Part shown: one piece after another, positions 12,832-35,513 of the stretch | How the letters are laid out: every line of letters begins with the position of its first letter | How positions within the stretch are numbered: the stretch's first letter is position 1 | Notes under the pieces: model-generated | The model's input: the letters and a program-made list of their open reading frames with translations, nothing else | The model's database searches: none | What the model was told of the DNA's origin: nothing | NCBI GenBank assembly: GCA_965225855.1 | Contig: CBDDCK010000005.1 | Coordinates: 1,061,509 to 1,125,508 of the forward strand | Length of the DNA: 64,000 nt | Reading direction: 5' to 3' | Source of the DNA: Spirochaetia bacterium | GTDB taxonomy: Bacteria > Spirochaetota > Spirochaetia > SP-2023 | Position numbers and translations under genes: made by a program

Positions 12832-15800
12832 ATCTACAACAGTAGAAATTAAATAGTGTCCTTAGACTCTTCTTCTCTGCTGTATATTTTTTTGTAAAAT
12901 CTACAACAGTAGAAATTAAATAGTGTCCTTAGACCAAACCACCCAAACATTCAACCCTTCAATCTACAACAGTAGAAATTAAATAGTGTCCTTAGACTTA
13001 CTCAACATCCTAGTCTGCTACAATCTACAACAGTAGAAATTAAATAGTGTCCTTAGACTCTTCTTCTCTGCTGTATATTTTTTTGTAAAATCTACAACAG
13101 TAGAAATTAAATAGTGTCCTTAGACCAAACCACCCAAACATTCAACCCTTCAATCTACAACAGTAGAAATTAAATAGTGTCCTTAGACTTACTCAACATC
13201 CTAGTCTGCTACAATCTACAACAGTAGAAATTAAATAGTGTCCTTAGACTCTTCTTCTCTGCTGTATATTTTTTTGTAAAATCTACAACAGTAGAAATTA
13301 AATAGTGTCCTTAGACCAACGAAGCCCTAGCCGAAGCCAACGATCTACAACAGTAGAAATTAAATAGTGTCCTTAGACTATGATATGGACAGAAGAAGAT
13401 GATGATATCTACAACAGTAGAAATTAAATAGTGTCCTTAGACGAATAACAACGGCGAGATCGCCGTAATCTACAACAGTAGAAATTAAATAGTGTCCTTA
13501 GACGAAAATAGCTAAGGGAATAGCTATAGAGATCTACAACAGTAGAAATTAAATAGTGTCCTTAGACAGCCCTATGGTGATTGCTACAGGCCTATCTACA
13601 ACAGTAGAAATTAAATAGTGTCCTTAGACAGCCCTATGGTGATTGCTACAGGCCTATCTACAACAGTAGAAATTAAATAGTGTCCTTAGACAAAATAGCA
13701 AACGATGCCGTGGTCGCAATCTACAACAGTAGAAATTAAATAGTGTCCTTAGACACGTTAATTTGCCCGATTATTGTAAAAATCTACAACAGTAGAAATT
13801 AAATAGTGTCCTTAGACACCGTATAATGCAATTGCATGATTGATTATCTACAACAGTAGAAATTAAATAGTGTCCTTAGACACCGTATAATGCAATTGCA
13901 TGATTGATTATCTACAACAGTAGAAATTAAATAGTGTCCTTAGACCATATTGCCACTCAAAAACAATTTTAACTATCTACAACAGTAGAAATTAAATAGT
14001 GTCCTTAGACAGTCTATTGTTCGTCTGTCTTGGAGGGAATCTACAACAGTAGAAATTAAATAGTGTCCTTAGACCACTCCTCCAGCACACACACTCCTCC
14101 AGATCTACAACAGTAGAAATTAAATAGTGTCCTTAGACGGATTCATAGTCAGCCTCAAAATGGGATCTACAACAGTAGAAATTAAATAGTGTCCTTAGAC
14201 AATGAAATCTTCCCATTGATCCCATAAATCTACAACAGTAGAAATTAAATAGTGTCCTTAGACGCCAACAGCAATAAAATAGCAATGTTCATCTACAACA
14301 GTAGAAATTAAATAGTGTCCTTAGACCCTGTGTATCTTGGTGAAGATTATTCATCTACAACAGTAGAAATTAAATAGTGTCCTTAGACGCGTTTTATCCG
14401 TGTAGGAATCTACAATCTACAACAGTAGAAATTAAATAGTGTCCTTAGACAACTCATCCCAGCGACCCTGATAGCCATCTACAACAGTAGAAATTAAATA
14501 GTGTCCTTAGACAATACTCATTATAAATAAGGTTATACGCTATCTACAACAGTAGAAATTAAATAGTGTCCTTAGACTGTATCTGTATAGACAATCTAAG
14601 GTCAATCTACAACAGTAGAAATTAAATAGTGTCCTTAGACTCTATATTCATCCCAACGTCCTTGATAACATCTACAACAGTAGAAATTAAATAGTGTCCT
14701 TAGACATGTCAATTACCATAATCCCTTTAGTATCTACAACAGTAGAAATTAAATAGTGTCCTTAGACCAAATGCAGTGCTCTTTTTTTTTTAATCTACAA
14801 CAGTAGAAATTAAATAGTGTCCTTAGACTCTGGATGAACACATACGAACTAGTTATCTACAACAGTAGAAATTAAATAGTGTCCTTAGACACTGTTGCAC
14901 AAGGCCTCCCAATTTTATCTACAACAGTAGAAATTAAATAGTGTCCTTAGACATGTCTAATGAAATAAAACAATACAATATCTACAACAGTAGAAATTAA
15001 ATAGTGTCCTTAGACCGGTTGTATAGCTTTGCATTGGGCAGCCATCTACAACAGTAGAAATTAAATAGTGTCCTTAGACCCCTAAGCATAAGAGCACTAT
15101 TCAATACTATCTACAACAGTAGAAATTAAATAGTGTCCTTAGACTTACGCCATTACATTGGGCCGCGCGCAAATCTACAACAGTAGAAATTAAATAGTGT
15201 CCTTAGACATTATCTTAATATATCCAAGGGGCTATAATCTACAACAGTAGAAATTAAATAGTGTCCTTAGACACAGCCCCATCTAGGAAATCCATTTAAT
15301 CTACAACAGTAGAAATTAAATAGTGTCCTTAGACAACAGATTCAAAAATCCCTTTTTATCTATCTACAACAGTAGAAATTAAATAGTGTCCTTAGACATC
15401 GGGCACGCCGTTTATTACCAATTATCTACAACAGTAGAAATTAAATAGTGTCCTTAGACGGAAAATGAATAAGTTTGCTTGTACTTAATCTACAACAGTA
15501 GAAATTAAATAGTGTCCTTAGACGGAAAATGAATAAGTTTGCTTGTACTTAATCTACAACAGTAGAAATTAAATAGTGTCCTTAGACATGGCAGGCGCAG
15601 AAGGAGACGCCCGTATCTACAACAGTAGAAATTAAATAGTGTCCTTAGACATTTTTATCCTATACCCGCAGCAGTAACAATCTACAACAGTAGAAATTAA
15701 ATAGTGTCCTTAGACCTTCAATCTGTTCTTCCATATACCACCTATCTACAACAGTAGAAATTAAATAGTGTCCTTAGACTGTCGTGATATTTACTACCAG

Positions 15801-18800
15801 ATACCATCTACAACAGTAGAAATTAAATAGTGTCCTTAGACACAACATTTATTCTATAAATACAACCTAATCTACAACAGTAGAAATTAAATAGTGTCCT
15901 TAGACAAATACAGCCGATAATATGAATATATAATCTACAACAGTAGAAATTAAATAGTGTCCTTAGACGAGATATCGTTGTTGCCACGAGAACGATCTAC
16001 AACAGTAGAAATTAAATAGTGTCCTTAGACAATTCGGTTACTGGAAACTTGGACACATCTACAACAGTAGAAATTAAATAGTGTCCTTAGACCGTAAAAC
16101 TGGAAACTTAGAAATTCAGGACATCTACAACAGTAGAAATTAAATAGTGTCCTTAGACAGAACAAGAATTAAACCTAGTGCGCAATCTACAACAGTAGAA
16201 ATTAAATAGTGTCCTTAGACCAATAGTGAACAATTCAAGCCACCTATTATCTACAACAGTAGAAATTAAATAGTGTCCTTAGACTTTACAAGTTTGCAAG
16301 CAGCACCACAAATCTACAACAGTAGAAATTAAATAGTGTCCTTAGACCCCACGATAGGGTAAAATAGCTACCAATCTACAACAGTAGAAATTAAATAGTG
16401 TCCTTAGACATTGATGTTGTAAGATAGAACTATTGCCATATCTACAACAGTAGAAATTAAATAGTGTCCTTAGACTTTAAAAGAAAACAATTGAATTGAT
16501 CCTATCTACAACAGTAGAAATTAAATAGTGTCCTTAGACAATGTTTAGTTTGTCAATTTCGTTGTGATCTACAACAGTAGAAATTAAATAGTGTCCTTAG
16601 ACCTTTTGATAAGGCCGAGGTGGCCCTATATCTACAACAGTAGAAATTAAATAGTGTCCTTAGACCATAAAATCGGGGGCTTAAAACCAATAATCTACAA
16701 CAGTAGAAATTAAATAGTGTCCTTAGACCTTCATATGCTGCGCAGTGCAAGGGTGATCTACAACAGTAGAAATTAAATAGTGTCCTTAGACCTTCATATG
16801 CTGCGCAGTGCAAGGGTGATCTACAACAGTAGAAATTAAATAGTGTCCTTAGACCTTCATATGCTGCGCAGTGCAAGGGTGATCTACAACAGTAGAAATT
16901 AAATAGTGTCCTTAGACCTGCTAATAGCAGCTGGGGCCGATCCATCTACAACAGTAGAAATTAAATAGTGTCCTTAGACCTGCTAATAGCAGCTGGGGCC
17001 GATCCATCTACAACAGTAGAAATTAAATAGTGTCCTTAGACCCCTTGCACTGGGCAGCCGATGAAGAATCTACAACAGTAGAAATTAAATAGTGTCCTTA
17101 GACCTTAGCCTCATATGGAGGCCATAAAATCTACAACAGTAGAAATTAAATAGTGTCCTTAGACATAAAATCGGGGACTTAAAACCAATAATCTACAACA
17201 GTAGAAATTAAATAGTGTCCTTAGACACATCCTTGCTAAAGCTACTGACCATAAATCTACAACAGTAGAAATTAAATAGTGTCCTTAGACCATGAATGGT
17301 ATGTTTTATAATTGTTAATCTACAACAGTAGAAATTAAATAGTGTCCTTAGACTTTTGTTGCTGTTAATCCTGACTCCTATCTACAACAGTAGAAATTAA
17401 ATAGTGTCCTTAGACCTTGGCCTTTACATCGGCCAATTACATCTACAACAGTAGAAATTAAATAGTGTCCTTAGACAAAATATACAGGTTTATATCGTAT
17501 CCATCTACAACAGTAGAAATTAAATAGTGTCCTTAGACCTTGGCCTTTACATCGGCCAATTACATCTACAACAGTAGAAATTAAATAGTGTCCTTAGACG
17601 ACGCAATATCCTGCATCTAGCAGCGAATCTACAACAGTAGAAATTAAATAGTGTCCTTAGACAGGGCTAAAGGTGTGGCCGAAGCTAAATCTACAACAGT
17701 AGAAATTAAATAGTGTCCTTAGACCAACGCCAATCCCTAGCAATCCACCCACATCTACAACAGTAGAAATTAAATAGTGTCCTTAGACTACAAAGGAATA
17801 GAATACGCTTCGTATCTACAACAGTAGAAATTAAATAGTGTCCTTAGACGCCATAACTAAAAGAAAAAAAGTACAAATCTACAACAGTAGAAATTAAATA
17901 GTGTCCTTAGACCAAATCATTTTTAACTTTAACCTCCATATCTACAACAGTAGAAATTAAATAGTGTCCTTAGACGTACGGTCAATAAACAAACCCCTAA
18001 TTGATCTACAACAGTAGAAATTAAATAGTGTCCTTAGACCAGCAAACCAGCACCGAGCGTAATAAAAATCTACAACAGTAGAAATTAAATAGTGTCCTTA
18101 GACTCCACAACAGTTTTTTCTTCCACTTCGGATCTACAACAGTAGAAATTAAATAGTGTCCTTAGACTTATGAAAAATATAAAGGAAAGCTTGAAAATCT
18201 ACAACAGTAGAAATTAAATAGTGTCCTTAGACCCTATAAGGGTATGCTACCGTGTAATAAATCTACAACAGTAGAAATTAAATAGTGTCCTTAGACCTTG
18301 CTAAGGCAGTCTGCAACCCCCGTATCTACAACAGTAGAAATTAAATAGTGTCCTTAGACCAAATATGGTAACATAAATAATATCTGATCTACAACAGTAG
18401 AAATTAAATAGTGTCCTTAGACTTAGCAGAAGATCAAGAATTGCGTGAAATCTACAACAGTAGAAATTAAATAGTGTCCTTAGACTTCTGTTCAGCGTAG
18501 GGTTACTGATCTATCTACAACAGTAGAAATTAAATAGTGTCCTTAGACCTTGTTTATAACTCATTCCTATTTCGTTATCTACAACAGTAGAAATTAAATA
18601 GTGTCCTTAGACCGTTGGTGGCTAAGTCTAGCCGTTTTAATCTACAACAGTAGAAATTAAATAGTGTCCTTAGACCACTGTTGCAAAGTGCCTCCCAATT
18701 TTATCTACAACAGTAGAAATTAAATAGTGTCCTTAGACAGTTTATCGTAAGGTTTTCTTATTTTATATCTACAACAGTAGAAATTAAATAGTGTCCTTAG

Positions 18801-21800
18801 ACAGCAGCAGGATCGCGGATTATTTAAATCATCTACAACAGTAGAAATTAAATAGTGTCCTTAGACTTATCTATAGCCTTATCCAAAGATACAATCTACA
18901 ACAGTAGAAATTAAATAGTGTCCTTAGACAGGCAAACCATATCTTTTACCTATATCATCTACAACAGTAGAAATTAAATAGTGTCCTTAGACAGCACCAA
19001 TTAACGCTCCAATACCTGCATCTACAACAGTAGAAATTAAATAGTGTCCTTAGACAAAACAAAATGATGATTTTAACTTTGAATCTACAACAGTAGAAAT
19101 TAAATAGTGTCCTTAGACTTTGCATCCTTCAAAATCAAGGTCTCATCTACAACAGTAGAAATTAAATAGTGTCCTTAGACGTTGGATCGCCTAAATATTG
19201 GGCTGCATCTACAACAGTAGAAATTAAATAGTGTCCTTAGACTTTGCATCCTTCAAAATCAAGGTCTCATCTACAACAGTAGAAATTAAATAGTGTCCTT
19301 AGACGTTGGATCGCCTAAATATTGGGCTGCATCTACAACAGTAGAAATTAAATAGTGTCCTTAGACGATGCAATAACAGAAGCCAAAGCATTATCTACAA
19401 CAGTAGAAATTAAATAGTGTCCTTAGACGTGGCAGATTTTATGAAGTTCTTACAATCTACAACAGTAGAAATTAAATAGTGTCCTTAGACCTACTATGAT
19501 ACACCAACAACCGAAACAATCTACAACAGTAGAAATTAAATAGTGTCCTTAGACCCCAATTCACCAGCAAAACACAAACATCTACAACAGTAGAAATTAA
19601 ATAGTGTCCTTAGACGCCCATGATCTTTTATTGATTAAGAATAATCTACAACAGTAGAAATTAAATAGTGTCCTTAGACTATAAGCATAAGCAGCAGACG
19701 CTGCCAATCTACAACAGTAGAAATTAAATAGTGTCCTTAGACTTCTGGGGAACCAGTAATCCAATTTGTATCTACAACAGTAGAAATTAAATAGTGTCCT
19801 TAGACGCACCTTAGTAAAACCACGTTTGTTGTTATCTACAACAGTAGAAATTAAATAGTGTCCTTAGACTAAAAAAGACTGTACACCTTTGCACTATCTA
19901 CAACAGTAGAAATTAAATAGTGTCCTTAGACTTTATTCCTCCTTCTTGTTTCGCATCAATCTACAACAGTAGAAATTAAATAGTGTCCTTAGACTTGCAC
20001 GCAACAAAAACAGGGCAAAGCTATCTACAACAGTAGAAATTAAATAGTGTCCTTAGACATTTACAGCGATAAAGTAAAGTTACATGATCTACAACAGTAG
20101 AAATTAAATAGTGTCCTTAGACAACAAAGTGAAACAAGCCATAAAAAAGTATCTACAACAGTAGAAATTAAATAGTGTCCTTAGACATGGATGATATTAT
20201 TCTTCTTTCTATATCTACAACAGTAGAAATTAAATAGTGTCCTTAGACATGGATGATATTATTCTTCTTTCTATATCTACAACAGTAGAAATTAAATAGT
20301 GTCCTTAGACGTGCTTATATCAACGGCGCAGATTATATCTACAACAGTAGAAATTAAATAGTGTCCTTAGACTCGAAAGCGCACGAAAAAGCCAAGAAAT
20401 CTACAACAGTAGAAATTAAATAGTGTCCTTAGACACGCTCTACAGGTTATCAATGCTTTTGAATCTACAACAGTAGAAATTAAATAGTGTCCTTAGACTA
20501 CCTCACTATAAAACCACGGAATACATCTACAACAGTAGAAATTAAATAGTGTCCTTAGACATTTACAGCGATAAAGTAAAGTTACATGATCTACAACAGT
20601 AGAAATTAAATAGTGTCCTTAGACACGCTCTACAGGTTATCAATGCTTTTGAATCTACAACAGTAGAAATTAAATAGTGTCCTTAGACCTGCAAAATCCC
20701 ATAATTTAGATCATAATCTACAACAGTAGAAATTAAATAGTGTCCTTAGACAGTCGAGAAATCCGGTTTCAGACTGATCTACAACAGTAGAAATTAAATA
20801 GTGTCCTTAGACTTAATCTAAATAACCAAAAGAAACCGAATCTACAACAGTAGAAATTAAATAGTGTCCTTAGACGTACCTATTAGTACAAATACTTATA
20901 TAATCTACAACAGTAGAAATTAAATAGTGTCCTTAGACTTTTGTTATTTTTTATTTAAGTTTTAAATCTACAACAGTAGAAATTAAATAGTGTCCTTAGA
21001 CCTTTGCTATTTCTTCGCCTTGAGGTTGAATCTACAACAGTAGAAATTAAATAGTGTCCTTAGACTTTAACTGTAGAAGAAATAATAGAAGAAATCTACA
21101 ACAGTAGAAATTAAATAGTGTCCTTAGACGAACAAATTAAAAAAGTTTTTAAGGAATCTACAACAGTAGAAATTAAATAGTGTCCTTAGACTTCCCACTT
21201 AGTAAAAAAACAAGTAAATCTACAACAGTAGAAATTAAATAGTGTCCTTAGACCGTCTGATCCTTTAATTGATGCATTTTATCTACAACAGTAGAAATTA
21301 AATAGTGTCCTTAGACTTTTCTTTATCAAGATTAAATAAATCGATCTACAACAGTAGAAATTAAATAGTGTCCTTAGACAAGCTAAGCACGCACAGCTCA
21401 ATAAACATCTACAACAGTAGAAATTAAATAGTGTCCTTAGACTTTACCATATAAACCTAGCGATGTCATAATCTACAACAGTAGAAATTAAATAGTGTCC
21501 TTAGACAAACATTGTTCCAAGGCCAAAGCCAAATCTACAACAGTAGAAATTAAATAGTGTCCTTAGACAAACTTGGTATTGATTCCGGTCTTTTATCTAC
21601 AACAGTAGAAATTAAATAGTGTCCTTAGACGATTTGCGGATTGGCGAAAAAGGCTTTATCTACAACAGTAGAAATTAAATAGTGTCCTTAGACTTTGTGG
21701 GTCTGGTGTAGAAATTAATTATCTACAACAGTAGAAATTAAATAGTGTCCTTAGACGTCGAGGCAGCTGGGTACCTTATCGAATCTACAACAGTAGAAAT

Positions 21801-24800
21801 TAAATAGTGTCCTTAGACCACTTAAATATAAAGTGGCCCGCAGAATCTACAACAGTAGAAATTAAATAGTGTCCTTAGACGCCAAAAACCTACCTTACAT
21901 AGCAAAAATCTACAACAGTAGAAATTAAATAGTGTCCTTAGACCGCAATAGCCGTATTTTTTTATGATGCATCTACAACAGTAGAAATTAAATAGTGTCC
22001 TTAGACATGGGTTTGTTCGTTGTGGGGTTTTTCATCTACAACAGTAGAAATTAAATAGTGTCCTTAGACAAATCTCTTGGTGTTAGTCATTCCAAATCTA
22101 CAACAGTAGAAATTAAATAGTGTCCTTAGACAAACAACAGATTTAACACCACAAGAAATCTACAACAGTAGAAATTAAATAGTGTCCTTAGACAAAAGCA
22201 GCAGAAATCTCTGTAGAAAATCTACAACAGTAGAAATTAAATAGTGTCCTTAGACTTGTGCGCCTGTTTCGCTGGGATTTGATCTACAACAGTAGAAATT
22301 AAATAGTGTCCTTAGACCCAAAACAGCAGCGTGGAGCGTTGCTGATCTACAACAGTAGAAATTAAATAGTGTCCTTAGACCAAGTTAAGAAATTATTGAT
22401 GCAAGGAATCTACAACAGTAGAAATTAAATAGTGTCCTTAGACTTAATCAGTCTAGTTGAAAAATCTATATCTACAACAGTAGAAATTAAATAGTGTCCT
22501 TAGACTTAATCAGTCTAGTTGAAAAATCTATATCTACAACAGTAGAAATTAAATAGTGTCCTTAGACCGCTAATTGCCCTGTAAGCTGGGCGTTGATCTA
22601 CAACAGTAGAAATTAAATAGTGTCCTTAGACAGTTTATGTTAAATCTGCCGATAATTATCTACAACAGTAGAAATTAAATAGTGTCCTTAGACCCGTTTA
22701 TTAATTCTTTATCAGAAGATATCTACAACAGTAGAAATTAAATAGTGTCCTTAGACCCGTTTATTAATTCTTTATCAGAAGATATCTACAACAGTAGAAA
22801 TTAAATAGTGTCCTTAGACAGTTTATGTTAAATCTGCCGATAATTATCTACAACAGTAGAAATTAAATAGTGTCCTTAGACAAAACAGGGAAAAGCTGAA
22901 ACCCCTAATCTACAACAGTAGAAATTAAATAGTGTCCTTAGACATTGACGCCTTTAGTTTCAAAATCCTATCTACAACAGTAGAAATTAAATAGTGTCCT
23001 TAGACAAACTATGAAAGAAATCCACTTTTAATCTACAACAGTAGAAATTAAATAGTGTCCTTAGACAGTGGTTTAAAGTTTGCATTTGAACGATCTACAA
23101 CAGTAGAAATTAAATAGTGTCCTTAGACCGAAACAAGACTGAAACAAAAACTGAAAATCTACAACAGTAGAAATTAAATAGTGTCCTTAGACCGCAGCAA
23201 CCAATAGATTGGTCGCACAATCTACAACAGTAGAAATTAAATAGTGTCCTTAGACCACTTGGCAAAAACACCAAGAGCATTAATCTACAACAGTAGAAAT
23301 TAAATAGTGTCCTTAGACCTTGATGGCAATAATGCTGAGCGACAGCATCTACAACAGTAGAAATTAAATAGTGTCCTTAGACCTTGATGGCAATAATGCT
23401 GAGCGACAGCATCTACAACAGTAGAAATTAAATAGTGTCCTTAGACCAACCTTGTGGTCAAGATCGATCATGTATCTACAACAGTAGAAATTAAATAGTG
23501 TCCTTAGACGCGTAAAATTTCATCTGATCAGACTTAATCTACAACAGTAGAAATTAAATAGTGTCCTTAGACTTATTTTCGTTTAGCAAAAAAAAGGAAT
23601 CTACAACAGTAGAAATTAAATAGTGTCCTTAGACCTTTGCCTGAAGCCCAAGAACATTTTATCTACAACAGTAGAAATTAAATAGTGTCCTTAGACTTCG
23701 TATTTTACGGCAATCATAGTAAGATCTACAACAGTAGAAATTAAATAGTGTCCTTAGACTTCTAAGATCATTAGGTTTGAGCACAAATCTACAACAGTAG
23801 AAATTAAATAGTGTCCTTAGACAAAAAAAAGGGAAGCACCGCCTCCCAATCTACAACAGTAGAAATTAAATAGTGTCCTTAGACTGCTGGGTCTCGCTAT
23901 ACAGAGTTCCTATCTACAACAGTAGAAATTAAATAGTGTCCTTAGACTATAAAGGATATAAAGAATAGATATAAATCTACAACAGTAGAAATTAAATAGT
24001 GTCCTTAGACTATAAAGGATATAAAGAATAGATATAAATCTACAACAGTAGAAATTAAATAGTGTCCTTAGACTATAAAGGATATAAAGAATAGATATAA
24101 ATCTACAACAGTAGAAATTAAATAGTGTCCTTAGACAGAGCTTTTGTCAATTGAATTATCAAATCTACAACAGTAGAAATTAAATAGTGTCCTTAGACAT
24201 TTTCAAGCCCGATATGGCTTAGAATCTACAACAGTAGAAATTAAATAGTGTCCTTAGACATAGTTGGTACCACAAATAAAGCAATATCTACAACAGTAGA
24301 AATTAAATAGTGTCCTTAGACCGAGACGCCCTTGCACAGGGCAGAGCGCAACGGCATCTACAACAGTAGAAATTAAATAGTGTCCTTAGACTTACAAAGG
24401 GAAAATACAAAAAACAGAAATCTACAACAGTAGAAATTAAATAGTGTCCTTAGACAGAGAAAGATGGGAGTCTGACAAACTAAATCTACAACAGTAGAAA
24501 TTAAATAGTGTCCTTAGACTCCAGCTGCTAGAGGCAGCTGGGGCTTAATCTACAACAGTAGAAATTAAATAGTGTCCTTAGACCACTGTGCTGCCCATAA
24601 AGGTTATACTATCTACAACAGTAGAAATTAAATAGTGTCCTTAGACTTCCTTGTTTACTCGTTATACAGATTATATCTACAACAGTAGAAATTAAATAGT
24701 GTCCTTAGACCTACAATGCAAGCATTGTAATCGGTATGATCTACAACAGTAGAAATTAAATAGTGTCCTTAGACCTACAATGCAAGCATTGTAATCGGTA

Positions 24801-27800
24801 TGATCTACAACAGTAGAAATTAAATAGTGTCCTTAGACTGCAAAACCACAAAAGCCATTGTTGACATCTACAACAGTAGAAATTAAATAGTGTCCTTAGA
24901 CGCTCTACTGTTAAATTAAACGAAATAGATCTACAACAGTAGAAATTAAATAGTGTCCTTAGACAGATCAGAAGTCAAAGAAACAGGATCAATCTACAAC
25001 AGTAGAAATTAAATAGTGTCCTTAGACACGGTTTAGAACCAGTTACGGAAATATCTACAACAGTAGAAATTAAATAGTGTCCTTAGACAAAAATCGAGCC
25101 GACATCACCGAACAAATCTACAACAGTAGAAATTAAATAGTGTCCTTAGACTCCAAGACTGATTGAACCCACTGAATATCTACAACAGTAGAAATTAAAT
25201 AGTGTCCTTAGACAGGAGTCTATTATGGACAAACTATTCATCTACAACAGTAGAAATTAAATAGTGTCCTTAGACAAACCGCCATGGTCCAGCTGCTCTT
25301 GATCTACAACAGTAGAAATTAAATAGTGTCCTTAGACAGAAAGATCAACGGAAAAATTCTCAGATCTACAACAGTAGAAATTAAATAGTGTCCTTAGACC
25401 CAATAATGCTAGATGACAGGTTCTTGCTATCTACAACAGTAGAAATTAAATAGTGTCCTTAGACCCAATAATGCTAGATGACAGGTTCTTGCTATCTACA
25501 ACAGTAGAAATTAAATAGTGTCCTTAGACTCAATATCTAAATAATGCCGCAAAAGCGATCTACAACAGTAGAAATTAAATAGTGTCCTTAGACCAGTAAA
25601 ATTGCCAAGACGACCGCCAGATCTACAACAGTAGAAATTAAATAGTGTCCTTAGACTTTTTTGGTATTCCAATACCTGAAACTATCTACAACAGTAGAAA
25701 TTAAATAGTGTCCTTAGACACGAATTGGCAGCGGCAAGCAGATCGTCATCTACAACAGTAGAAATTAAATAGTGTCCTTAGACTTTGGTTTTACCCCGTG
25801 GCTGGTCTTATATCTACAACAGTAGAAATTAAATAGTGTCCTTAGACTTCTCTGTGATTCTAACTGTTATTTATCTACAACAGTAGAAATTAAATAGTGT
25901 CCTTAGACTTAAAGATATAGAAGTTTTAGATCGACTAATCTACAACAGTAGAAATTAAATAGTGTCCTTAGACCACAATCAAACGCTTAAACAAAATAAT
26001 CTACAACAGTAGAAATTAAATAGTGTCCTTAGACCTCAGTACCTCTCATAAGACCAGTAACAATCTACAACAGTAGAAATTAAATAGTGTCCTTAGACAC
26101 GATTGCCTTTGGTATCGGCACATCTTATCTACAACAGTAGAAATTAAATAGTGTCCTTAGACCACAATCAAACGCTTAAACAAAATAATCTACAACAGTA
26201 GAAATTAAATAGTGTCCTTAGACATTAGGGTAGTTGAGTAGGTAGAAAAGATCTACAACAGTAGAAATTAAATAGTGTCCTTAGACATTAGGGTAGTTGA
26301 GTAGGTAGAAAAGATCTACAACAGTAGAAATTAAATAGTGTCCTTAGACATCTTTCGCAAAATCCAAGTAATCCAATCTACAACAGTAGAAATTAAATAG
26401 TGTCCTTAGACATTGGGCTGCCTATAAAGGGCATACGATCTACAACAGTAGAAATTAAATAGTGTCCTTAGACCAAGAAAATCTTTCTTCAGTCGGAGTA
26501 ATCTACAACAGTAGAAATTAAATAGTGTCCTTAGACCTATTACTTCCCCATACACTCAACCTCATCTACAACAGTAGAAATTAAATAGTGTCCTTAGACG
26601 CCATAAGTAACAGAAAGACCAGACCTAATCTACAACAGTAGAAATTAAATAGTGTCCTTAGACTTTTTGGTATTCCAAATACCTGAAACTATCTACAACA
26701 GTAGAAATTAAATAGTGTCCTTAGACAACCAGATACAAATTAATCTAAACAAAATCTACAACAGTAGAAATTAAATAGTGTCCTTAGACAAAAAATCTAA
26801 ATATGGGAATTTTAAAAATCTACAACAGTAGAAATTAAATAGTGTCCTTAGACCTGCAAACATTAGCCATTTTTGACCAAAATCTACAACAGTAGAAATT
26901 AAATAGTGTCCTTAGACTATCCTTTTTTCAATATCTTTTATACATCTACAACAGTAGAAATTAAATAGTGTCCTTAGACAGCCAGCGCAAAATGCAAATT
27001 TTTATATCTACAACAGTAGAAATTAAATAGTGTCCTTAGACGAGTACATTACCTCGGAAAAGCACAGCGATCTACAACAGTAGAAATTAAATAGTGTCCT
27101 TAGACTTTCTATATTTTTGCCTTAGCATTAATCTACAACAGTAGAAATTAAATAGTGTCCTTAGACGAGTACATTACCTCGGAAAAGCACAGCGATCTAC
27201 AACAGTAGAAATTAAATAGTGTCCTTAGACTTAAATAAGTGAGCAATTTTTCATCCGAATCTACAACAGTAGAAATTAAATAGTGTCCTTAGACTTTGTA
27301 GATGAAGCGCACCGAGGTAAATCTACAACAGTAGAAATTAAATAGTGTCCTTAGACTGCAAAAATATCTAAAAAAAGAACTCATATCTACAACAGTAGAA
27401 ATTAAATAGTGTCCTTAGACTGCTTCTGCTTCTGTCGTTGTATTTTTATCTACAACAGTAGAAATTAAATAGTGTCCTTAGACTAACACGACTACCTTTA
27501 AAAGTAATAATCTACAACAGTAGAAATTAAATAGTGTCCTTAGACGATAAAGATTAGATATTTATCCCATATATCTACAACAGTAGAAATTAAATAGTGT
27601 CCTTAGACTGCAAAAATATCTAAAAAAAGAACTCATATCTACAACAGTAGAAATTAAATAGTGTCCTTAGACATAATTCTTTTATTTTCCACCCCTAAAT
27701 CTACAACAGTAGAAATTAAATAGTGTCCTTAGACTTGTAACGGGTAAAGTTTTAAAGCACAAATCTACAACAGTAGAAATTAAATAGTGTCCTTAGACGG

Positions 27801-30800
27801 TATATTAGTACCTTGCACTACCAGATCTACAACAGTAGAAATTAAATAGTGTCCTTAGACTTTGTTAGCTGCACGCAATTCACCTGATCTACAACAGTAG
27901 AAATTAAATAGTGTCCTTAGACTCTCTTTGAGCATCCATTTTTTATTTGGATCTACAACAGTAGAAATTAAATAGTGTCCTTAGACTCTCTTTGAGCATC
28001 CATTTTTTATTTGGATCTACAACAGTAGAAATTAAATAGTGTCCTTAGACTCTCTTTGAGCATCCATTTTTTATTTGGATCTACAACAGTAGAAATTAAA
28101 TAGTGTCCTTAGACAGCAAGTTTCTCCGCTTGGGCTCTCAATCTACAACAGTAGAAATTAAATAGTGTCCTTAGACGTCTATCCACCACGCGGATTGATT
28201 GAACTCTTTGAGCATCCATTTTTTATTTGGATCTACAACAGTAGAAATTAAATAGTGTCCTTAGACAGCAAGTTTCTCCGCTTGGGCTCTCAATCTACAA
28301 CAGTAGAAATTAAATAGTGTCCTTAGACGAAATATATTGATATGTAACCACGACTATCTACAACAGTAGAAATTAAATAGTGTCCTTAGACTAGACCTAA
28401 ATTAATTGCATAATACAAGATCTACAACAGTAGAAATTAAATAGTGTCCTTAGACCCAGCTGCTAGAGGCAGCTGGGGCTTAATCTACAACAGTAGAAAT
28501 TAAATAGTGTCCTTAGACTAGACCTAAATTAATTGCATAATACAAGATCTACAACAGTAGAAATTAAATAGTGTCCTTAGACATAAGGCTAGATGACACC
28601 TTCTTTACTATCTACAACAGTAGAAATTAAATAGTGTCCTTAGACGAACAAGGATTAAATCCATTCAACAGGATCTACAACAGTAGAAATTAAATAGTGT
28701 CCTTAGACCCCGATATGGCTTAGATACAAAAGCTAGATCTACAACAGTAGAAATTAAATAGTGTCCTTAGACTACTTGACGAACCAACAGAAAAATAAAT
28801 CTACAACAGTAGAAATTAAATAGTGTCCTTAGACTTCAAATAGCAGCAGATAAGCAAATTGCATCTACAACAGTAGAAATTAAATAGTGTCCTTAGACCT
28901 ACAATGCAAGCATTGTAATCGGTATGATCTACAACAGTAGAAATTAAATAGTGTCCTTAGACTGTTAGGTGGAAAAGGAAGAGAGAAGGATCTACAACAG
29001 TAGAAATTAAATAGTGTCCTTAGACACCTCGAATATACAGACCCAAGCCCAATCTACAACAGTAGAAATTAAATAGTGTCCTTAGACAATCGACAATAAA
29101 GAAAAAAGGTAAAATCTACAACAGTAGAAATTAAATAGTGTCCTTAGACGTTAGCCGAATTGCAAAACGACTGAATATCTACAACAGTAGAAATTAAATA
29201 GTGTCCTTAGACATTGCAAGACGATGCTGTAAGTCAAAAATCTACAACAGTAGAAATTAAATAGTGTCCTTAGACATTGTTCAGCTTTATGAAGAAATTT
29301 TGAATCTACAACAGTAGAAATTAAATAGTGTCCTTAGACGCGAAAAGCCATAACCACGGGCAATTATCTACAACAGTAGAAATTAAATAGTGTCCTTAGA
29401 CTTCTATCATTATTGCGCCCTTGATGGATCTACAACAGTAGAAATTAAATAGTGTCCTTAGACCTTCTATTCAGAGGCGTGTTGCTGACCTATCTACAAC
29501 AGTAGAAATTAAATAGTGTCCTTAGACTGTCGCTCTATGGAAGTACCCTTCAATCTACAACAGTAGAAATTAAATAGTGTCCTTAGACACTGGAACTTAA
29601 CAAAGACGGACTTGATCTACAACAGTAGAAATTAAATAGTGTCCTTAGACAGCAATCTTAGAAAAAATGGATAGGGAATCTACAACAGTAGAAATTAAAT
29701 AGTGTCCTTAGACACCAAGCCTATTAAATCTATTGGTTGGATCTACAACAGTAGAAATTAAATAGTGTCCTTAGACAACGGTACACACTCTAATTCACGA
29801 GTGATCTACAACAGTAGAAATTAAATAGTGTCCTTAGACGTTAGATTTTGTGGACATAACTTTTTATCTACAACAGTAGAAATTAAATAGTGTCCTTAGA
29901 CCCCAGCTTTACTGCCAAGGATATTTTATCTACAACAGTAGAAATTAAATAGTGTCCTTAGACCCCAGCTTTACTGCCAAGGATATTTTATCTACAACAG
30001 TAGAAATTAAATAGTGTCCTTAGACCCCAGCTTTACTGCCAAGGATATTTTATCTACAACAGTAGAAATTAAATAGTGTCCTTAGACTGGCTATAACACT
30101 ATCCCCCACAAGAAAATCTACAACAGTAGAAATTAAATAGTGTCCTTAGACATTCTATCATGTTTTTAAGCGAAAATATCTACAACAGTAGAAATTAAAT
30201 AGTGTCCTTAGACTTAACCGTACAAGGTACTGACTTAAATCTACAACAGTAGAAATTAAATAGTGTCCTTAGACTATTACTTCTCCCTACACCCAACCTC
30301 TATCTACAACAGTAGAAATTAAATAGTGTCCTTAGACTAACTGTCTGCTCAATTTGTCTCCTACATCTACAACAGTAGAAATTAAATAGTGTCCTTAGAC
30401 AAGGTCGGTATCGAGACGATCGTGAAATCTACAACAGTAGAAATTAAATAGTGTCCTTAGACTTTCAGAGGTCTTACAGACTTCTGGTACATCTACAACA
30501 GTAGAAATTAAATAGTGTCCTTAGACTAATGTAAATGGTAATATAGATTATGAATCTACAACAGTAGAAATTAAATAGTGTCCTTAGACCTAGCGAAGAA
30601 ACAATCAAAGCTAGTCAATCTACAACAGTAGAAATTAAATAGTGTCCTTAGACCTAGCGAAGAAACAATCAAAGCTAGTCAATCTACAACAGTAGAAATT
30701 AAATAGTGTCCTTAGACTAGTAATATAACTTGCGGCGCTATCGAATCTACAACAGTAGAAATTAAATAGTGTCCTTAGACCCTGAATAAAATAGCTAGTA

Positions 30801-33176
30801 ACGCCGAATCTACAACAGTAGAAATTAAATAGTGTCCTTAGACCGTCCAACGATAACGGATATAACGAAACATCTACAACAGTAGAAATTAAATAGTGTC
30901 CTTAGACATCATATCAATAATTTATATTCTTTAATCTACAACAGTAGAAATTAAATAGTGTCCTTAGACATTGAACGGCAAGCAGGCCTAAATAGTATCT
31001 ACAACAGTAGAAATTAAATAGTGTCCTTAGACATTAAAAGATGTTACTTTTGGCCAAAGTATCTACAACAGTAGAAATTAAATAGTGTCCTTAGACCTAG
31101 CACTAGCACTAGCACACAAACAATCTACAACAGTAGAAATTAAATAGTGTCCTTAGACTATACTACGAGGGCAGTCCTTTGTTCCCATCTACAACAGTAG
31201 AAATTAAATAGTGTCCTTAGACTCCGTCACACAAGGAAAAAACGATAGATCTACAACAGTAGAAATTAAATAGTGTCCTTAGACCTCCGAAACCTTAACA
31301 CCAGCAGACTTGATCTACAACAGTAGAAATTAAATAGTGTCCTTAGACAACCTTCACACCCATTCTCTACAATCATCTACAACAGTAGAAATTAAATAGT
31401 GTCCTTAGACTATTGCCATAAATGCCGATACTATAAATCTACAACAGTAGAAATTAAATAGTGTCCTTAGACTTCTGTAGCCTTGGATAAGGCTGCTTTA
31501 TCTACAACAGTAGAAATTAAATAGTGTCCTTAGACCCTTTTAGGGTGCTTGGGGGACTGGTATAATCTACAACAGTAGAAATTAAATAGTGTCCTTAGAC
31601 ATAAATTGGAATTATAACATGCTATCTATCTACAACAGTAGAAATTAAATAGTGTCCTTAGACCAACCTGCCATCCTCACACAGCCCTAATCTACAACAG
31701 TAGAAATTAAATAGTGTCCTTAGACTCATAATCCTTATTAAATCTCTCTTTCTAATCTACAACAGTAGAAATTAAATAGTGTCCTTAGACTATATGGTTG
31801 CTATGAATAAACATACATATCTACAACAGTAGAAATTAAATAGTGTCCTTAGACCGAAAAGTTAAGTATGGAAGAACTAAAAATCTACAACAGTAGAAAT
31901 TAAATAGTGTCCTTAGACTTCTCGCCACCTGCAAGCAATTCAATATCTACAACAGTAGAAATTAAATAGTGTCCTTAGACATTCCCCGCAGTCTTATAAG
32001 CACTGCCATCTACAACAGTAGAAATTAAATAGTGTCCTTAGACATACCAATATAAAACCTAAAAACAACCATCTACAACAGTAGAAATTAAATAGTGTCC
32101 TTAGACGACCCAATGGGTGCTGGTGCTAGTATGCTATCTACAACAGTAGAAATTAAATAGTGTCCTTAGACAATGCACAATCTGCAGGAAAGATTTATCT
32201 ACAACAGTAGAAATTAAATAGTGTCCTTAGACAGGCTCAATATAAGAATCGTGTTCTGATCTACAACAGTAGAAATTAAATAGTGTCCTTAGACCTGAAA
32301 TTCCAGCAAGTGCCCGCAAGAGGATCTACAACAGTAGAAATTAAATAGTGTCCTTAGACTTGGCACCAGCTAAACTACTGGAAATATATCTACAACAGTA
32401 GAAATTAAATAGTGTCCTTAGACTAGAAAATATTGCTACTTCCGAGAGAATCTACAACAGTAGAAATTAAATAGTGTCCTTAGACATATCGGCTTTAGAT
32501 GTTGGCTTTGGATCTACAACAGTAGAAATTAAATAGTGTCCTTAGACTTTAATAATTTATGTAAAATAAAATTATATCTACAACAGTAGAAATTAAATAG
32601 TGTCCTTAGACAAAAAACAAACACCCGAACAGCTTGCATCTACAACAGTAGAAATTAAATAGTGTCCTTAGACAACCTAAGGAAACAAGGAAACCTAAGA
32701 TCTACAACAGTAGAAATTAAATAGTGTCCTTAGACACTAACACAAGCAAGCATAAACAGGATCTACAACAGTAGAAATTAAATAGTGTCCTTAGACAAGA
32801 AATTGAAAATATTCTAATCTTAAATCTACAACAGTAGAAATTAAATAGTGTCCTTAGACATATCGACAACTTAAGAAAACACTTAAGATCTACAACAGTA
32901 GAAATTAAATAGTGTCCTTAGACAGATAATTCGCTTTTGGATTCATCTATATCTACAACAGTAGAAATTAAATAGTGTCCTTAGACAAGTCTAAATAATA
33001 ATTTGCCAGATTTAATCTACAACAGTAGAAATTAAATAGTGTCCTTAGACAGTTTTTTGAAGACCTTTCTGGTACGATCTACAACAGTAGAAATTAAATA
33101 GTGTCCTTAGACTTGAAGGAATTGAGGAGGGATGATAATAATCTACAACAGTAGAAATTAAATAGTGTCCTTAGAC
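12832..33176 (-). CRISPR. Type V-A CRISPR array, about 323 repeats and about 322 spacers (20,345 bp)
   Basis: The 36-nt repeat is ATCTACAACAGTAGAAATTAAATAGTGTCCTTAGAC on the plus strand. Its minus-strand form is GTCTAAGGACACTATTTAATTTCTACTGTTGTAGAT, ending in the canonical Cas12a 5' handle AAUUUCUACUGUUGUAGAU, so crRNAs come from the minus strand. Spacers are 25-34 nt (mean about 27). First repeat 12832-12867, last repeat 33141-33176. Counted by a manual walk, so possibly off by a few. I saw no variant repeat. Confidence 0.98.
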
Positions 33177-33196
33177 TGTTCAATTTCACTCTCTTT

Positions 33197-33454
33197 TTAT
33201 CGATTTTTACTATCGTAGCGGTCGATTTTTCCGCATAGCCCATATTTTTCAGAATACGCAAAAATAGACTGGAACATCGATTTTGCTGTGCTGTATTTTT
33301 GCTTATCAATATTTATGTGAGCAGCCAGTCCTCTGCGCTGGGGCTCTTCATGATAGAAGTAGGTTGAGGTCTGTCCGTACAGTTGGTGAAAATAGAGCGA
33401 CCTAGGGCAAAACATAAAATCATTTAGATATGAAATGGGAATATAACTTTCCAA
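33197..33454 (-). pseudogene. cas4: cas4 N-terminal fragment (about 85 codons), truncated just before the first CRISPR repeat
   Basis: 'ISYLNDFMFCPRSLYFHQLYG' (Cas4 N-terminal Cys region) and '...YGLCGKIDRYD' (RecB-like motif II region), then a stop. The rest of the RecB nuclease core and the C-terminal Cys cluster are missing. The ORF ends 21 nt from repeat 33141-33176. TTG start. Confidence 0.7.
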
Positions 33455-33551
33455 AATAAAATTACCTTAGAATTTTTTAAAAAATATACTGTGAAACTAT
33501 TTTAGAAAAGCAACCAACCTGCGCTAAATTATCAAAGAACTTTTTATGTAC

Positions 33552-34067
33552 TCATACGAATAGAAAGAAAAGCAAACCGATTTTATGAATAAGAGAAAGG
33601 AGACGGCTTAAAGATTCTAACTGCTGCTCATATACATATTGCTTTATCATTTCCAATCCTCCCAAATCCATTATATAAGATGAAAATCCTGAAGATTTTG
33701 CCGTTAATTGTTTTAGATGTTCTTCAAACTTTTCCCATTCATTGTTCATTCTACCAGTATTTTGTTGCTCAAGTCCATAAGTTTTTAAAGCATGATAAGA
33801 TAAAGCAATGGTTTCGATATGAACAAAAAGGCAAAGAGGTAAGCTGTCTATTTTCTTATTATCAAAGTAATGCAACTCCCTTAGTAAGGGATATGTTCCT
33901 TTTCCAGCTGCAATTTTCTTTTTTTGCCTTTCTGCTAACTTCTTGTAGAGTTTATATAATTGTTTGTGGTCTAATGCTACAACCACACCACAAACAAAAG
34001 ATTTAAGCTTTTTATCAAAAAGGTCAAATTTACCAGTTTCATCAAGGCCTACATACCATGTTGTCAT
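33552..34067 (-). CDS. Hypothetical protein (171 aa) inside the CRISPR-Cas island
   Basis: ORF with low GC like the cas genes. The N-terminal 'WYVGLDETGKF' weakly recalls the DESG start of DUF3800 or RNase-H-like folds. No confident family assignment. Confidence 0.4.
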   Translation of the reverse strand: MTTWYVGLDETGKFDLFDKKLKSFVCGVVVALDHKQLYKLYKKLAERQKKKIAAGKGTYPLLRELHYFDNKKIDSLPLCLFVHIETIALSYHALKTYGLEQQNTGRMNNEWEKFEEHLKQLTAKSSGFSSYIMDLGGLEMIKQYVYEQQLESLSRLLSLIHKIGLLFFLFV

Positions 34068-34189
34068 TACAAAACCTGCCTAATTTTTTTAATATTGTAA
34101 AAAGTTAACCAAAATACTGATTTTTGATTTTTTGGCAACTTAGGTGATTATTGACCATATAAGTCTTATCATATCCAAATGATATAAAA

Positions 34190-34226
34190 ACCCAACAAAG
34201 TAGAAATAAAATATTGTCCTAAATTA
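34190..34226 (-). repeat. Orphan degenerate CRISPR repeat (pseudo-repeat)
   Basis: Plus strand CAACA-AA-GTAGAAAT-A-AAATA-T-TGTCCT aligns to repeat CAACA-GTAGAAAT-T-AAATA-G-TGTCCT. That is 24 matches, 2 mismatches and one 2-nt insertion. The hairpin part of the handle is disrupted. It lies 1,014 nt beyond the array end and abuts the fabF-like stop codon. Confidence 0.75.
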
Positions 34227-35513
34227 GGATTCAAAACGTTTGATTAACGAACAGCAGTTAATGCCACCGAAACCAAAAGAATTTTTGAGCATCAAATTGA
34301 TATGATGCTCTACGACTTTATTGGCACAAAGCTCTAATCCTTCAATTTCAGGGTCGGGATCATCAAGGTTGATAGTCGGGTGCAGCTTGCCGTATTGCAT
34401 GGACTTCAAAGCCCCAACAGTTTCCACCAAGGGGGAAGCCCAACAAGTATGCCCTAACATGGACTTAGGCGCATTGAGCTTAATGTTGGCAATATGTGGG
34501 CCAAACACATTTTTCAAAGCCAAGATTTCCTGTAAATCCCCCTCATAAGTACTGGTAGCATGGCAGTTGATATAATCAATTTGTTCGGGATCAACGCCGG
34601 CCATAGCCAAAGCTTTTTTTATTACATGTTCTTGATGTTTAGCACCGGGGAGCGGCAAATGATTGGCATTGGCGTTGGCAGCAACCCCCAGCAATTCACC
34701 ATAAATTTTGGCATTGCGTCTTTCAGCCCGCTCTAAAGTTTCCAAAACCAAAGTGGCCCCACCATGGGAATATAAAAAACCACAGCGGCCTTTATCAAAC
34801 GGACGCGATGCCCTAGCGGGTTGATTTTGATATTCAGGTTTTATCACCACCGCACTCAAAACAATGGAAGCTTGAATATCGGCTGGAGAAACATCAAAAG
34901 GAGGGCCTACCACTAAAGCTGTATCGCATTCGCCAGACATAATGTCGATATAGCCTTGACGCAAGGCCAAGTTACCACTGGCACAAGCACCACCTAAAGT
35001 AAACGAGGGCCCGTGCAAACCTAAAGTTTCTGAAATAATAGCAGGTAAATTGGGGTCAATCGCGTCAATACTGGAAAGCGGCTCAATAAAATCAGGGTCT
35101 TTCATAAAATTGCGATAATTTTCAAAAATGTAGTTTGAATTAAAATTGTGCCCAGCCACAGGTAAACTGACATTGCGCAAATCAAAAGGCGGTGTTTCAA
35201 AAAGTTTTGCATCTTCCCAAGCTTGCATGGTAGCAATCAAAGCCATTTTTGCCGAAAATGTAGTACCGCGGAACAGCTTGCGTACAGCCTTGAGTTTCTG
35301 GTCTTCAAAATATTGCCAAAATGGTTGCATCGCAGTAGCAGTATCAAAATAACCCATATCGCCACCAATTTGGCATTCGAGCGCGCTCATATCCAAACTT
35401 TGCCAGCGGTTTATACCGGATTTTCCCATCAAGAGATTTTGGTAAAATTCTTCTGAATTGGCACCCAAAGGGTTTACCGTGCCGATGCCTGTAATCACAA
35501 TTCGATTTTTCAT
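34224..35513 (-). CDS. Beta-ketoacyl-[ACP] synthase (KAS I/II family)
   Basis: Active-site 'GGACASGNLAL' (Cys), 'INCHATSTYEGD' (His), 'KSMLGHTCWAS' (His) and C-terminal 'NSFGFGGINCC'. Confidence 0.85.
   Translation of the reverse strand: MKNRIVITGIGTVNPLGANSEEFYQNLLMGKSGINRWQSLDMSALECQIGGDMGYFDTATAMQPFWQYFEDQKLKAVRKLFRGTTFSAKMALIATMQAWEDAKLFETPPFDLRNVSLPVAGHNFNSNYIFENYRNFMKDPDFIEPLSSIDAIDPNLPAIISETLGLHGPSFTLGGACASGNLALRQGYIDIMSGECDTALVVGPPFDVSPADIQASIVLSAVVIKPEYQNQPARASRPFDKGRCGFLYSHGGATLVLETLERAERRNAKIYGELLGVAANANANHLPLPGAKHQEHVIKKALAMAGVDPEQIDYINCHATSTYEGDLQEILALKNVFGPHIANIKLNAPKSMLGHTCWASPLVETVGALKSMQYGKLHPTINLDDPDPEIEGLELCANKVVEHHINLMLKNSFGFGGINCCSLIKRFES

Follow-up and report, generated by a model that had tools for sequence, protein, structure and literature searches.

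A degenerate CRISPR repeat standing alone at the edge of a type V-A Cas12a/Cas12a3 island, probably a relic of rearrangement

We analysed a window of 64,000 nucleotides from a Spirochaetia bacterium, in which a low-GC island carries a type V-A CRISPR locus. Read along the minus strand, the features follow one another in the order fabF-like gene, orphan repeat, 123 nt of AT-rich DNA, ORF171, cas4 stump, 25-nt segment, array, cas12a and a gene for a protein of 1,202 aa, this Cas12a3-like gene being the last of the island (Table 1). The repeat, in its minus-strand reading, ends in the canonical Cas12a handle, an orientation which means that the array is transcribed from high to low coordinates. 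The position of cas12a, downstream of the array, is non-canonical. No Pfam match was found for the 1,202-aa protein, while its homologues have Cpf1-RuvC or TNB matches; it belongs to the Cas12a2/a3/a4 clade of RNA-triggered nucleases (PMC12851939). The locus is an unusual one, with an array of 323 repeats that feeds both a Cas12a and an RNA-triggered nuclease of the Cas12a3 type. The genes cas1 and cas2 and a recognisable leader are absent from the locus, and yet the array (12832..33176) consists of perfect repeats and has no degenerate terminal repeat.

Table 1. Coordinates of the features at the type V-A locus, in minus-strand order.
Feature	Position in the window	Strand	Remarks
fabF-like beta-ketoacyl synthase gene	34224..35513	-	PF00109, PF02801
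Orphan degenerate type V-A repeat	34191..34223	-	Core homology 34221-34194; alignment score 37
AT-rich region, orphan to ORF171	34068..34190	-	Weak AU hairpin; weak promoter-like site 34138-34111
ORF171, 171 aa	33552..34067	-	'Accessory gene' position upstream of cas4; this genome only
cas4 stump	33200..33466	-	TIGR04328 (type V Cas4), E 1.9e-24, 86.7 bits vs cut-off 70
25-nt segment directly before first array repeat	33177..33201	-	100% identical to methylase-T5orf172 gene end
Type V-A CRISPR array	12832..33176	-	323 letter-identical 36-nt repeats, 322 spacers (286 distinct)
cas12a, 1,568 aa	8058..12764	-	REC1, REC2, RuvC, NUC domains
Cas12a3-family nuclease gene, 1,202 aa	4409..8017	-	PDB 9HLX and 21WE, E ~1e-52

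The kilobase between the orphan and the array is of mixed composition. The cas4 stump covers positions 1-79 of the 178 positions of its model, that is, the N-terminal part, and its stop codon falls inside the 25-nt segment. The counterpart of this segment, made up of stop codon plus 3' flank, belongs to a DNA methylase-T5orf172 gene located 0.7 Mb away (G000:C5:1816353-1816377; L014:8354-8378); the segment represents a junction scar or else a spacer deprived of its upstream repeat. Methylase-T5orf172 or methylase genes also adjoin two homologous loci, L019 and L020. A search among 5.8 billion proteins returned no homologue of the ORF171 product besides itself, and neither Pfam nor NCBIfam gave a match; a language model indicated DUF3800-like features only. 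Part of ORF171 (33819-33845, encoding SLPLCLFVH) is identical over 27 nt to a 420-aa polyprenyl-synthase-like gene on contig C4 (G000:C4:25385-25411; L009:1501-1527), and the two proteins show a weak similarity over ~140 residues (E 2e-5). ORF171 may in part be a fragment of a gene or a patch left by gene conversion. Such identities, of 25 nt and 27 nt and to unrelated genes at other sites of the genome, mark the stretch from orphan to array as a mosaic of fragments. No remnant of a Cas12a C-terminus was found between the orphan and the cas4 stump, and the AT-rich region contained neither a second repeat-like sequence nor a match to a spacer. In a near-identical strain from another study, 51 nt of this region (34089-34139) are skipped in one contig of run X4 and present in another; the length polymorphism falls in the putative promoter region of ORF171.

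The first-pass annotation, made from the letters alone, had described a degenerate copy of the array repeat that abuts the fabF-like stop codon about 1 kb outside the array, upstream (in the minus-strand sense) of the 171-aa ORF, the cas4 stump and the array, at the compositional edge of the island. The plus-strand string that it quoted was found at 34194-34221, and our alignment of the orphan with the array repeat reproduced its 24 matches, 2 mismatches and single indel, which can be placed equally well as a 2-nt insertion or as a 1-nt deletion. The description of the surroundings was equally accurate: the TAA stop codon of the fabF-like gene occupies 34226-34224 and the repeat homology starts 2-3 nt past it, 1,018 nt separate the orphan from the first array repeat, the order of the neighbouring features is the one given, and the GC content steps from 0.33 to 0.41 at the orphan, where the low-GC island has its edge. 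The orphan lies on the same strand as the array, in direct orientation. Positions ~5-31 of the repeat are retained at ~90% identity, with the indel in the loop, while at the 3' end the last ~5 nt of the repeat are altered from TAGAT to GGTTT and the 3' half of the stem is missing.

We scanned the whole 2.7-Mb assembly with the repeat, on both strands, by local alignment (scoring +2/-3/-5/-2), and used 12 second-order Markov simulations of the whole genome as a control for chance. The maxima of the simulated genomes ranged from 28 to 34, compared with 37 for the orphan, and no match of 35 or more occurred in ~32 Mb of simulated sequence. In the real genome, only spacers of a different CRISPR array scored above the simulated range, apart from the orphan itself. 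A chance resemblance in AT-rich intergenic DNA would agree with the composition of the region and with the scores of 30-31 that arise by chance elsewhere in the genome, but none of the 12 simulations (maximum 34) reached the score of the orphan, which moreover lies less than 1.1 kb from the array and on its strand. Since no simulated score attained 35, a match of this grade within a kilobase or so of the array is far beyond chance, as the annotation had claimed; the simulations effectively refute a chance origin, to which we attach a negligible probability. The orphan derives from the locus's own array repeat.

Folding showed that the array repeat forms the canonical 5-bp stem (-7.5 kcal/mol), whereas the orphan has no stem and folds at -1.3 kcal/mol, no better than shuffled sequences (z +0.83). 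The crRNA hairpin had been reported as broken, and it is. The replacement of the last 5 nt, together with the indel in the loop, means that the stem-loop bound and cleaved by Cas12a-family proteins cannot form. What the orphan retains is the 5' part of the repeat, the portion trimmed off by Cas12a, and what it has lost is the handle; its RNA would go unrecognised by Cas12a and by the Cas12a3-like nuclease. Solitary V-A units of phages (L016-L018) and the protospacers captured by the type II array of the same genome keep the exact 19-nt handle and are devoid of the 5' part of this repeat. These candidate phage units, with their intact handle, look quite unlike the orphan, the conservation pattern of which is the reverse of that of functional repeat mimics. 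For annotation, this contrast is useful and clean: functional mimics such as CreR and the phage units retain a handle of 19-20 nt, while relics retain whatever part survives.

These observations bear on the proposal that the orphan is a mini-CRISPR of the CreR/CreA type, in which the sequence downstream of it would, by partial complementarity, direct Cas12a (or Cas12a3) to the repression of a promoter or toxin. CreR elements are known in V-A systems: the validated one of Moraxella bovoculi keeps the stem-loop and an identical 20-nt handle, is located just upstream of the cas12a promoter, and carries a pseudo-spacer that corresponds to a TTTA-flanked site at the -35 element (10.1101/2023.03.10.532045). 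Like it, the orphan is a degenerate repeat tied to a V-A locus, and the effector-side edge on which it lies would be, in the canonical gene order, the expected place of a creR gene. However, the orphan has neither the stem-loop nor an intact handle; it is not upstream of cas12a, being 21.4 kb from the start of that gene (12764) with the 20-kb array in between; and it has no TTTA-flanked -35 target. We searched the 2.7-Mb genome with seeds of 10-16 nt from the putative pseudo-spacer at 14 possible start offsets. No PAM-flanked seed site was found in the island or at the cas12a promoter, and the matches elsewhere were scattered and AT-rich, the longest exact one being a 14-mer, as expected in 2.7 Mb. 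The genome search for PAM-flanked partial targets that the annotation had suggested thus gave no guide-like target, and its failure to see, by eye, complementarity to the cas12a promoter was confirmed, the sequence that follows the orphan showing no similarity to that which follows the last array repeat, which is the cas12a upstream sequence. A second pseudo-repeat is absent, and promoter prediction gave nothing in the stretch that separates the fabF-like ORF from the orphan. The regulator proposed by the annotation failed on every testable point (stem, position and target), and we consider it very unlikely.

Another type of solitary unit derived from a CRISPR repeat is the Racr (RNA anti-CRISPR) of phages and plasmids, which is encoded on mobile elements and often placed behind a promoter; the activity of the tested I-F Racr depends on the repeat stem-loop (PMC10651486). 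A decoy of this type, which would need an intact stem-loop to bind the RNA-processing Cas protein, was rejected as an explanation of the orphan, which has lost the stem required by the tested I-F Racr. The orphan differs from Racrs also in being chromosomal and in lying directly behind a coding sequence.

If it were transcribed from the plus strand, the orphan could give an anti-repeat RNA pairing, in the manner of a tracrRNA, with ~26 nt of each of the 323 repeats and so modulating the processing of the pre-crRNA. Complementarity to the repeat follows automatically from similarity to it: the duplex would have 24 of 26 base pairs and a bulge, a geometry typical of repeat:anti-repeat duplexes. 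Cas12a and the Cas12a2/a3 clade, to which the second effector belongs, process their crRNA themselves, and no requirement for a tracrRNA is known for them (PMC10120712; PMC12851939). Neither a promoter nor a terminator was predicted on the plus strand near the orphan, the continuation of a plus-strand transcript would be antisense to the fabF coding sequence, and Rfam gave no match. The probability of such a role is, in our estimation, even slighter than that of a CreR-like one. On the minus strand, the orphan is probably transcribed only passively, within the 3' UTR of the fabF-like gene, since the interval from the stop codon to the orphan yielded no terminator-like site. An RNA from this site might conceivably have a role independent of Cas proteins.

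Standalone repeat-like sequences (SRUs) are present in ~49-56% of V-A loci, where they have a low identity to the repeat and no conserved target, and were detected by their conservation across related loci (Shmakov et al. 2023, PMC10120712). The orphan conforms to this class as an intergenic repeat-like sequence outside the array with significant similarity to the cognate repeat. It shares with SRUs the occurrence as a single intergenic unit in a V-A locus, the modest identity to the repeat, the lack of a second repeat and of a detectable target, and the position at the edge of the locus opposite the far end of the array. It differs in its distance from cas12a, described SRUs being mostly upstream of or adjacent to this gene, which here is 21 kb off, behind the array. 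The orphan is a further instance of this known kind. Stranded decayed repeats beside V-A loci are common and already catalogued, and the orphan is of little weight on its own.

In Francisella, an SRU next to a terminal repeat was interpreted as the remnant of a lost locus and as a possible substrate of recombination (PMC10120712). A recombination handle that still works, by which the V-A island would be excised, circularised or recaptured in the way suggested for those Francisella units, would suit the position of the orphan at the exact edge of the island and its direct orientation with the array, and circularisation followed by re-entry could produce the rotated gene order described below. 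The opposite (cas12a3-side) edge of the island, however, is without a repeat relic. The longest perfect stretch common to the orphan and the repeat is ~9-10 nt, which is too short for efficient homologous recombination dependent on RecA. A comparison of the two island edges yielded, as att-like direct repeats, only a low-complexity 14-mer. No excision or circle junction at the orphan was present in the contigs of the three runs with matching DNA, which is weak evidence, as contigs drop rare variants. We judge a recombination handle to be improbable. Taken more broadly, an active orphan, acting either as a recombination partner in the excision, rotation or recapture of the 30-kb Cas12a/Cas12a3 island or as a transcript of either strand that modulates crRNA processing, is unlikely, if by a shade less so. 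If the former were true, V-A standalone repeats would be a built-in mobility device; if the latter, crRNA processing would be modulated for two effectors that share one array.

Comparison with three genomes of the same genus showed that the fabF-like gene is conserved (76-81% nucleotide identity) and ends at the same residue position in this genome as in these relatives. Beyond the stop codon the homology ceases, and in none of the three genomes does a repeat-like sequence come after fabF. In all three, fabF is followed directly by an SDR gene and then, in two of them, by a gene of ~200 aa. In the present genome, the SDR and ~200-aa genes are located on another contig, directly after prfA. The displacement of the SDR gene from fabF means that the island edge where the orphan lies is also a chromosomal breakpoint. 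A single inversion or translocation could not be reconstructed from the prfA and fabF neighbourhoods of the same-genus genomes, the synteny of which is too fluid. In run X4, from the near-identical strain, the orphan is unchanged, and the ~99% overall identity makes this uninformative on selection.

A search for relatives of the Cas12a3-like protein gave four homologous loci in which cas12a is followed by the cas12a3-like gene, an accessory gene, cas4, cas1 and cas2, in this order, the accessory gene encoding an ATPase, a TPR protein or another Cas12-like protein. In the two loci that were compared at the DNA level, L019 and L020, the array follows cas2; that of L020 is inverted relative to the cas genes. 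The present locus reads as a rotation of this order from which the adaptation module has been deleted. In such a rotated order, the orphan marks the break, at the point where the effector genes would normally begin. No repeat-like unit above chance level was found outside the arrays of L019 and L020, both of which are distant loci (best score 29, within coding sequence). In the L019 array, the genuine terminal repeat, with its substitutions and a 2-nt deletion in the loop, shows a decay like that of the orphan.

Genome and metagenome collections were scanned with a pattern that fits the array repeat as well as the orphan. It hit one genome contig and two metagenome contigs, all of them single chance matches without arrays, and a related locus with this repeat was not found in the collections searched. 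A peptide-pattern scan of the genome contigs likewise found no close relative of this Cas12a. The nearest Cas12a has 57% identity over 44% of the query and belongs to a canonical locus; in the organism that carries it, the gene copy translates to the database protein only when TGA is read as tryptophan. Near a paralogue of the Cas12a3-like gene at 1.80 Mb of contig C5, a match to the handle (score 30, ~0.5 kb away) was discarded, being at chance level and inside an ORF of the opposite strand.

The orphan is, in our assessment, probably a non-functional standalone repeat relic, the scar of a rearrangement of the CRISPR island. The recombination events behind the rotated gene order and the loss of the adaptation module would have left the orphan at the island edge, with no present role in the biology of guide RNAs. 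Of the three readings offered in the first-pass annotation, it is the regulator that fell, while the decayed terminal repeat and the footprint of island assembly both fit. The footprint agrees with the position of the orphan at a break both of gene order and of synteny with the same-genus genomes. The decayed terminal repeat agrees with the orientation of the array and with the loss of the 3' part and retention of the 5' part seen in L019. A degenerate terminal repeat of a lost or duplicated segment of the array is a serious possibility, which we favour only tentatively. The resemblance to the terminal repeat of L019 extends to the strand, which is that of the array, and to the nature of the damage, the 3' part and the loop being corrupted by substitutions and a small indel. 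In contrast to that repeat, the orphan is attached to no spacer or array, with the fabF-like stop codon immediately 5' of it and 1 kb of mosaic sequence before the array. An effector-side standalone unit, of the kind that many V-A loci have at their flank, stranded when cas12a and cas12a3 moved behind the array, is a slightly more doubtful origin, though one that we also take seriously. No second repeat-like unit was found within 1.1 kb of the orphan, and the orphan itself has no match in Rfam.

Random breakage does not explain why the 5' end of the orphan meets the fabF stop exactly, nor why the junction of the cas4 stump falls at a repeat/spacer boundary. No single simple rearrangement gives the present order with the relic on this side, and at least 2-3 events are needed. 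The value of the orphan is that of a marker of the history of the locus, which records a point of rearrangement and the loss of the adaptation genes.

Several spacers of the V-A array match the genome itself, in most cases without a TTTV PAM. Spacer 47 (30214-30238) recurs across all five contigs, in 48 exact and more than 100 near copies, always after GGAC; the copy that we inspected looks like coding sequence, and the element has the appearance of a dispersed coding repeat. A single perfect self-match was found for spacer 48, for spacer 302 and for the second half of spacer 79; in the case of spacer 112, 26 of the 28 nt agree. The self-matching spacers raise the question of how autoimmunity is avoided when two effectors, one of them RNA-triggered, share the array.

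The same genome carries a type II CRISPR locus with Cas9, Cas1, a 111-aa ORF in the cas2 position and an array of 202 repeats (G000:C5:662644-675944; L001:2645-15945). Three spacers of this array (L001:6966-6995, 7032-7061 and ~15812-15841) are made up of the Cas12a crRNA handle with TAGAT after it, and one of them is near the cas-gene end of the array, presumably the leader end. Three IMG/VR viral contigs (L016, L017 and L018) also bear a solitary unit composed of the handle plus TAGAT, located just upstream of genes. The Cas9 system appears to have immunised the cell against phages carrying solitary V-A repeat units, and these units are candidate RNA anti-CRISPRs against the co-resident Cas12a/Cas12a3 system, an observation that is of more interest than the orphan itself. 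V-A spacers 87 and 179 (27673-27698 and 21881-21907) overlap type II spacers at C5:~666637 and ~675682, with 1-2 mismatches, the V-A and type II systems having sampled the same protospacer regions of related invaders.
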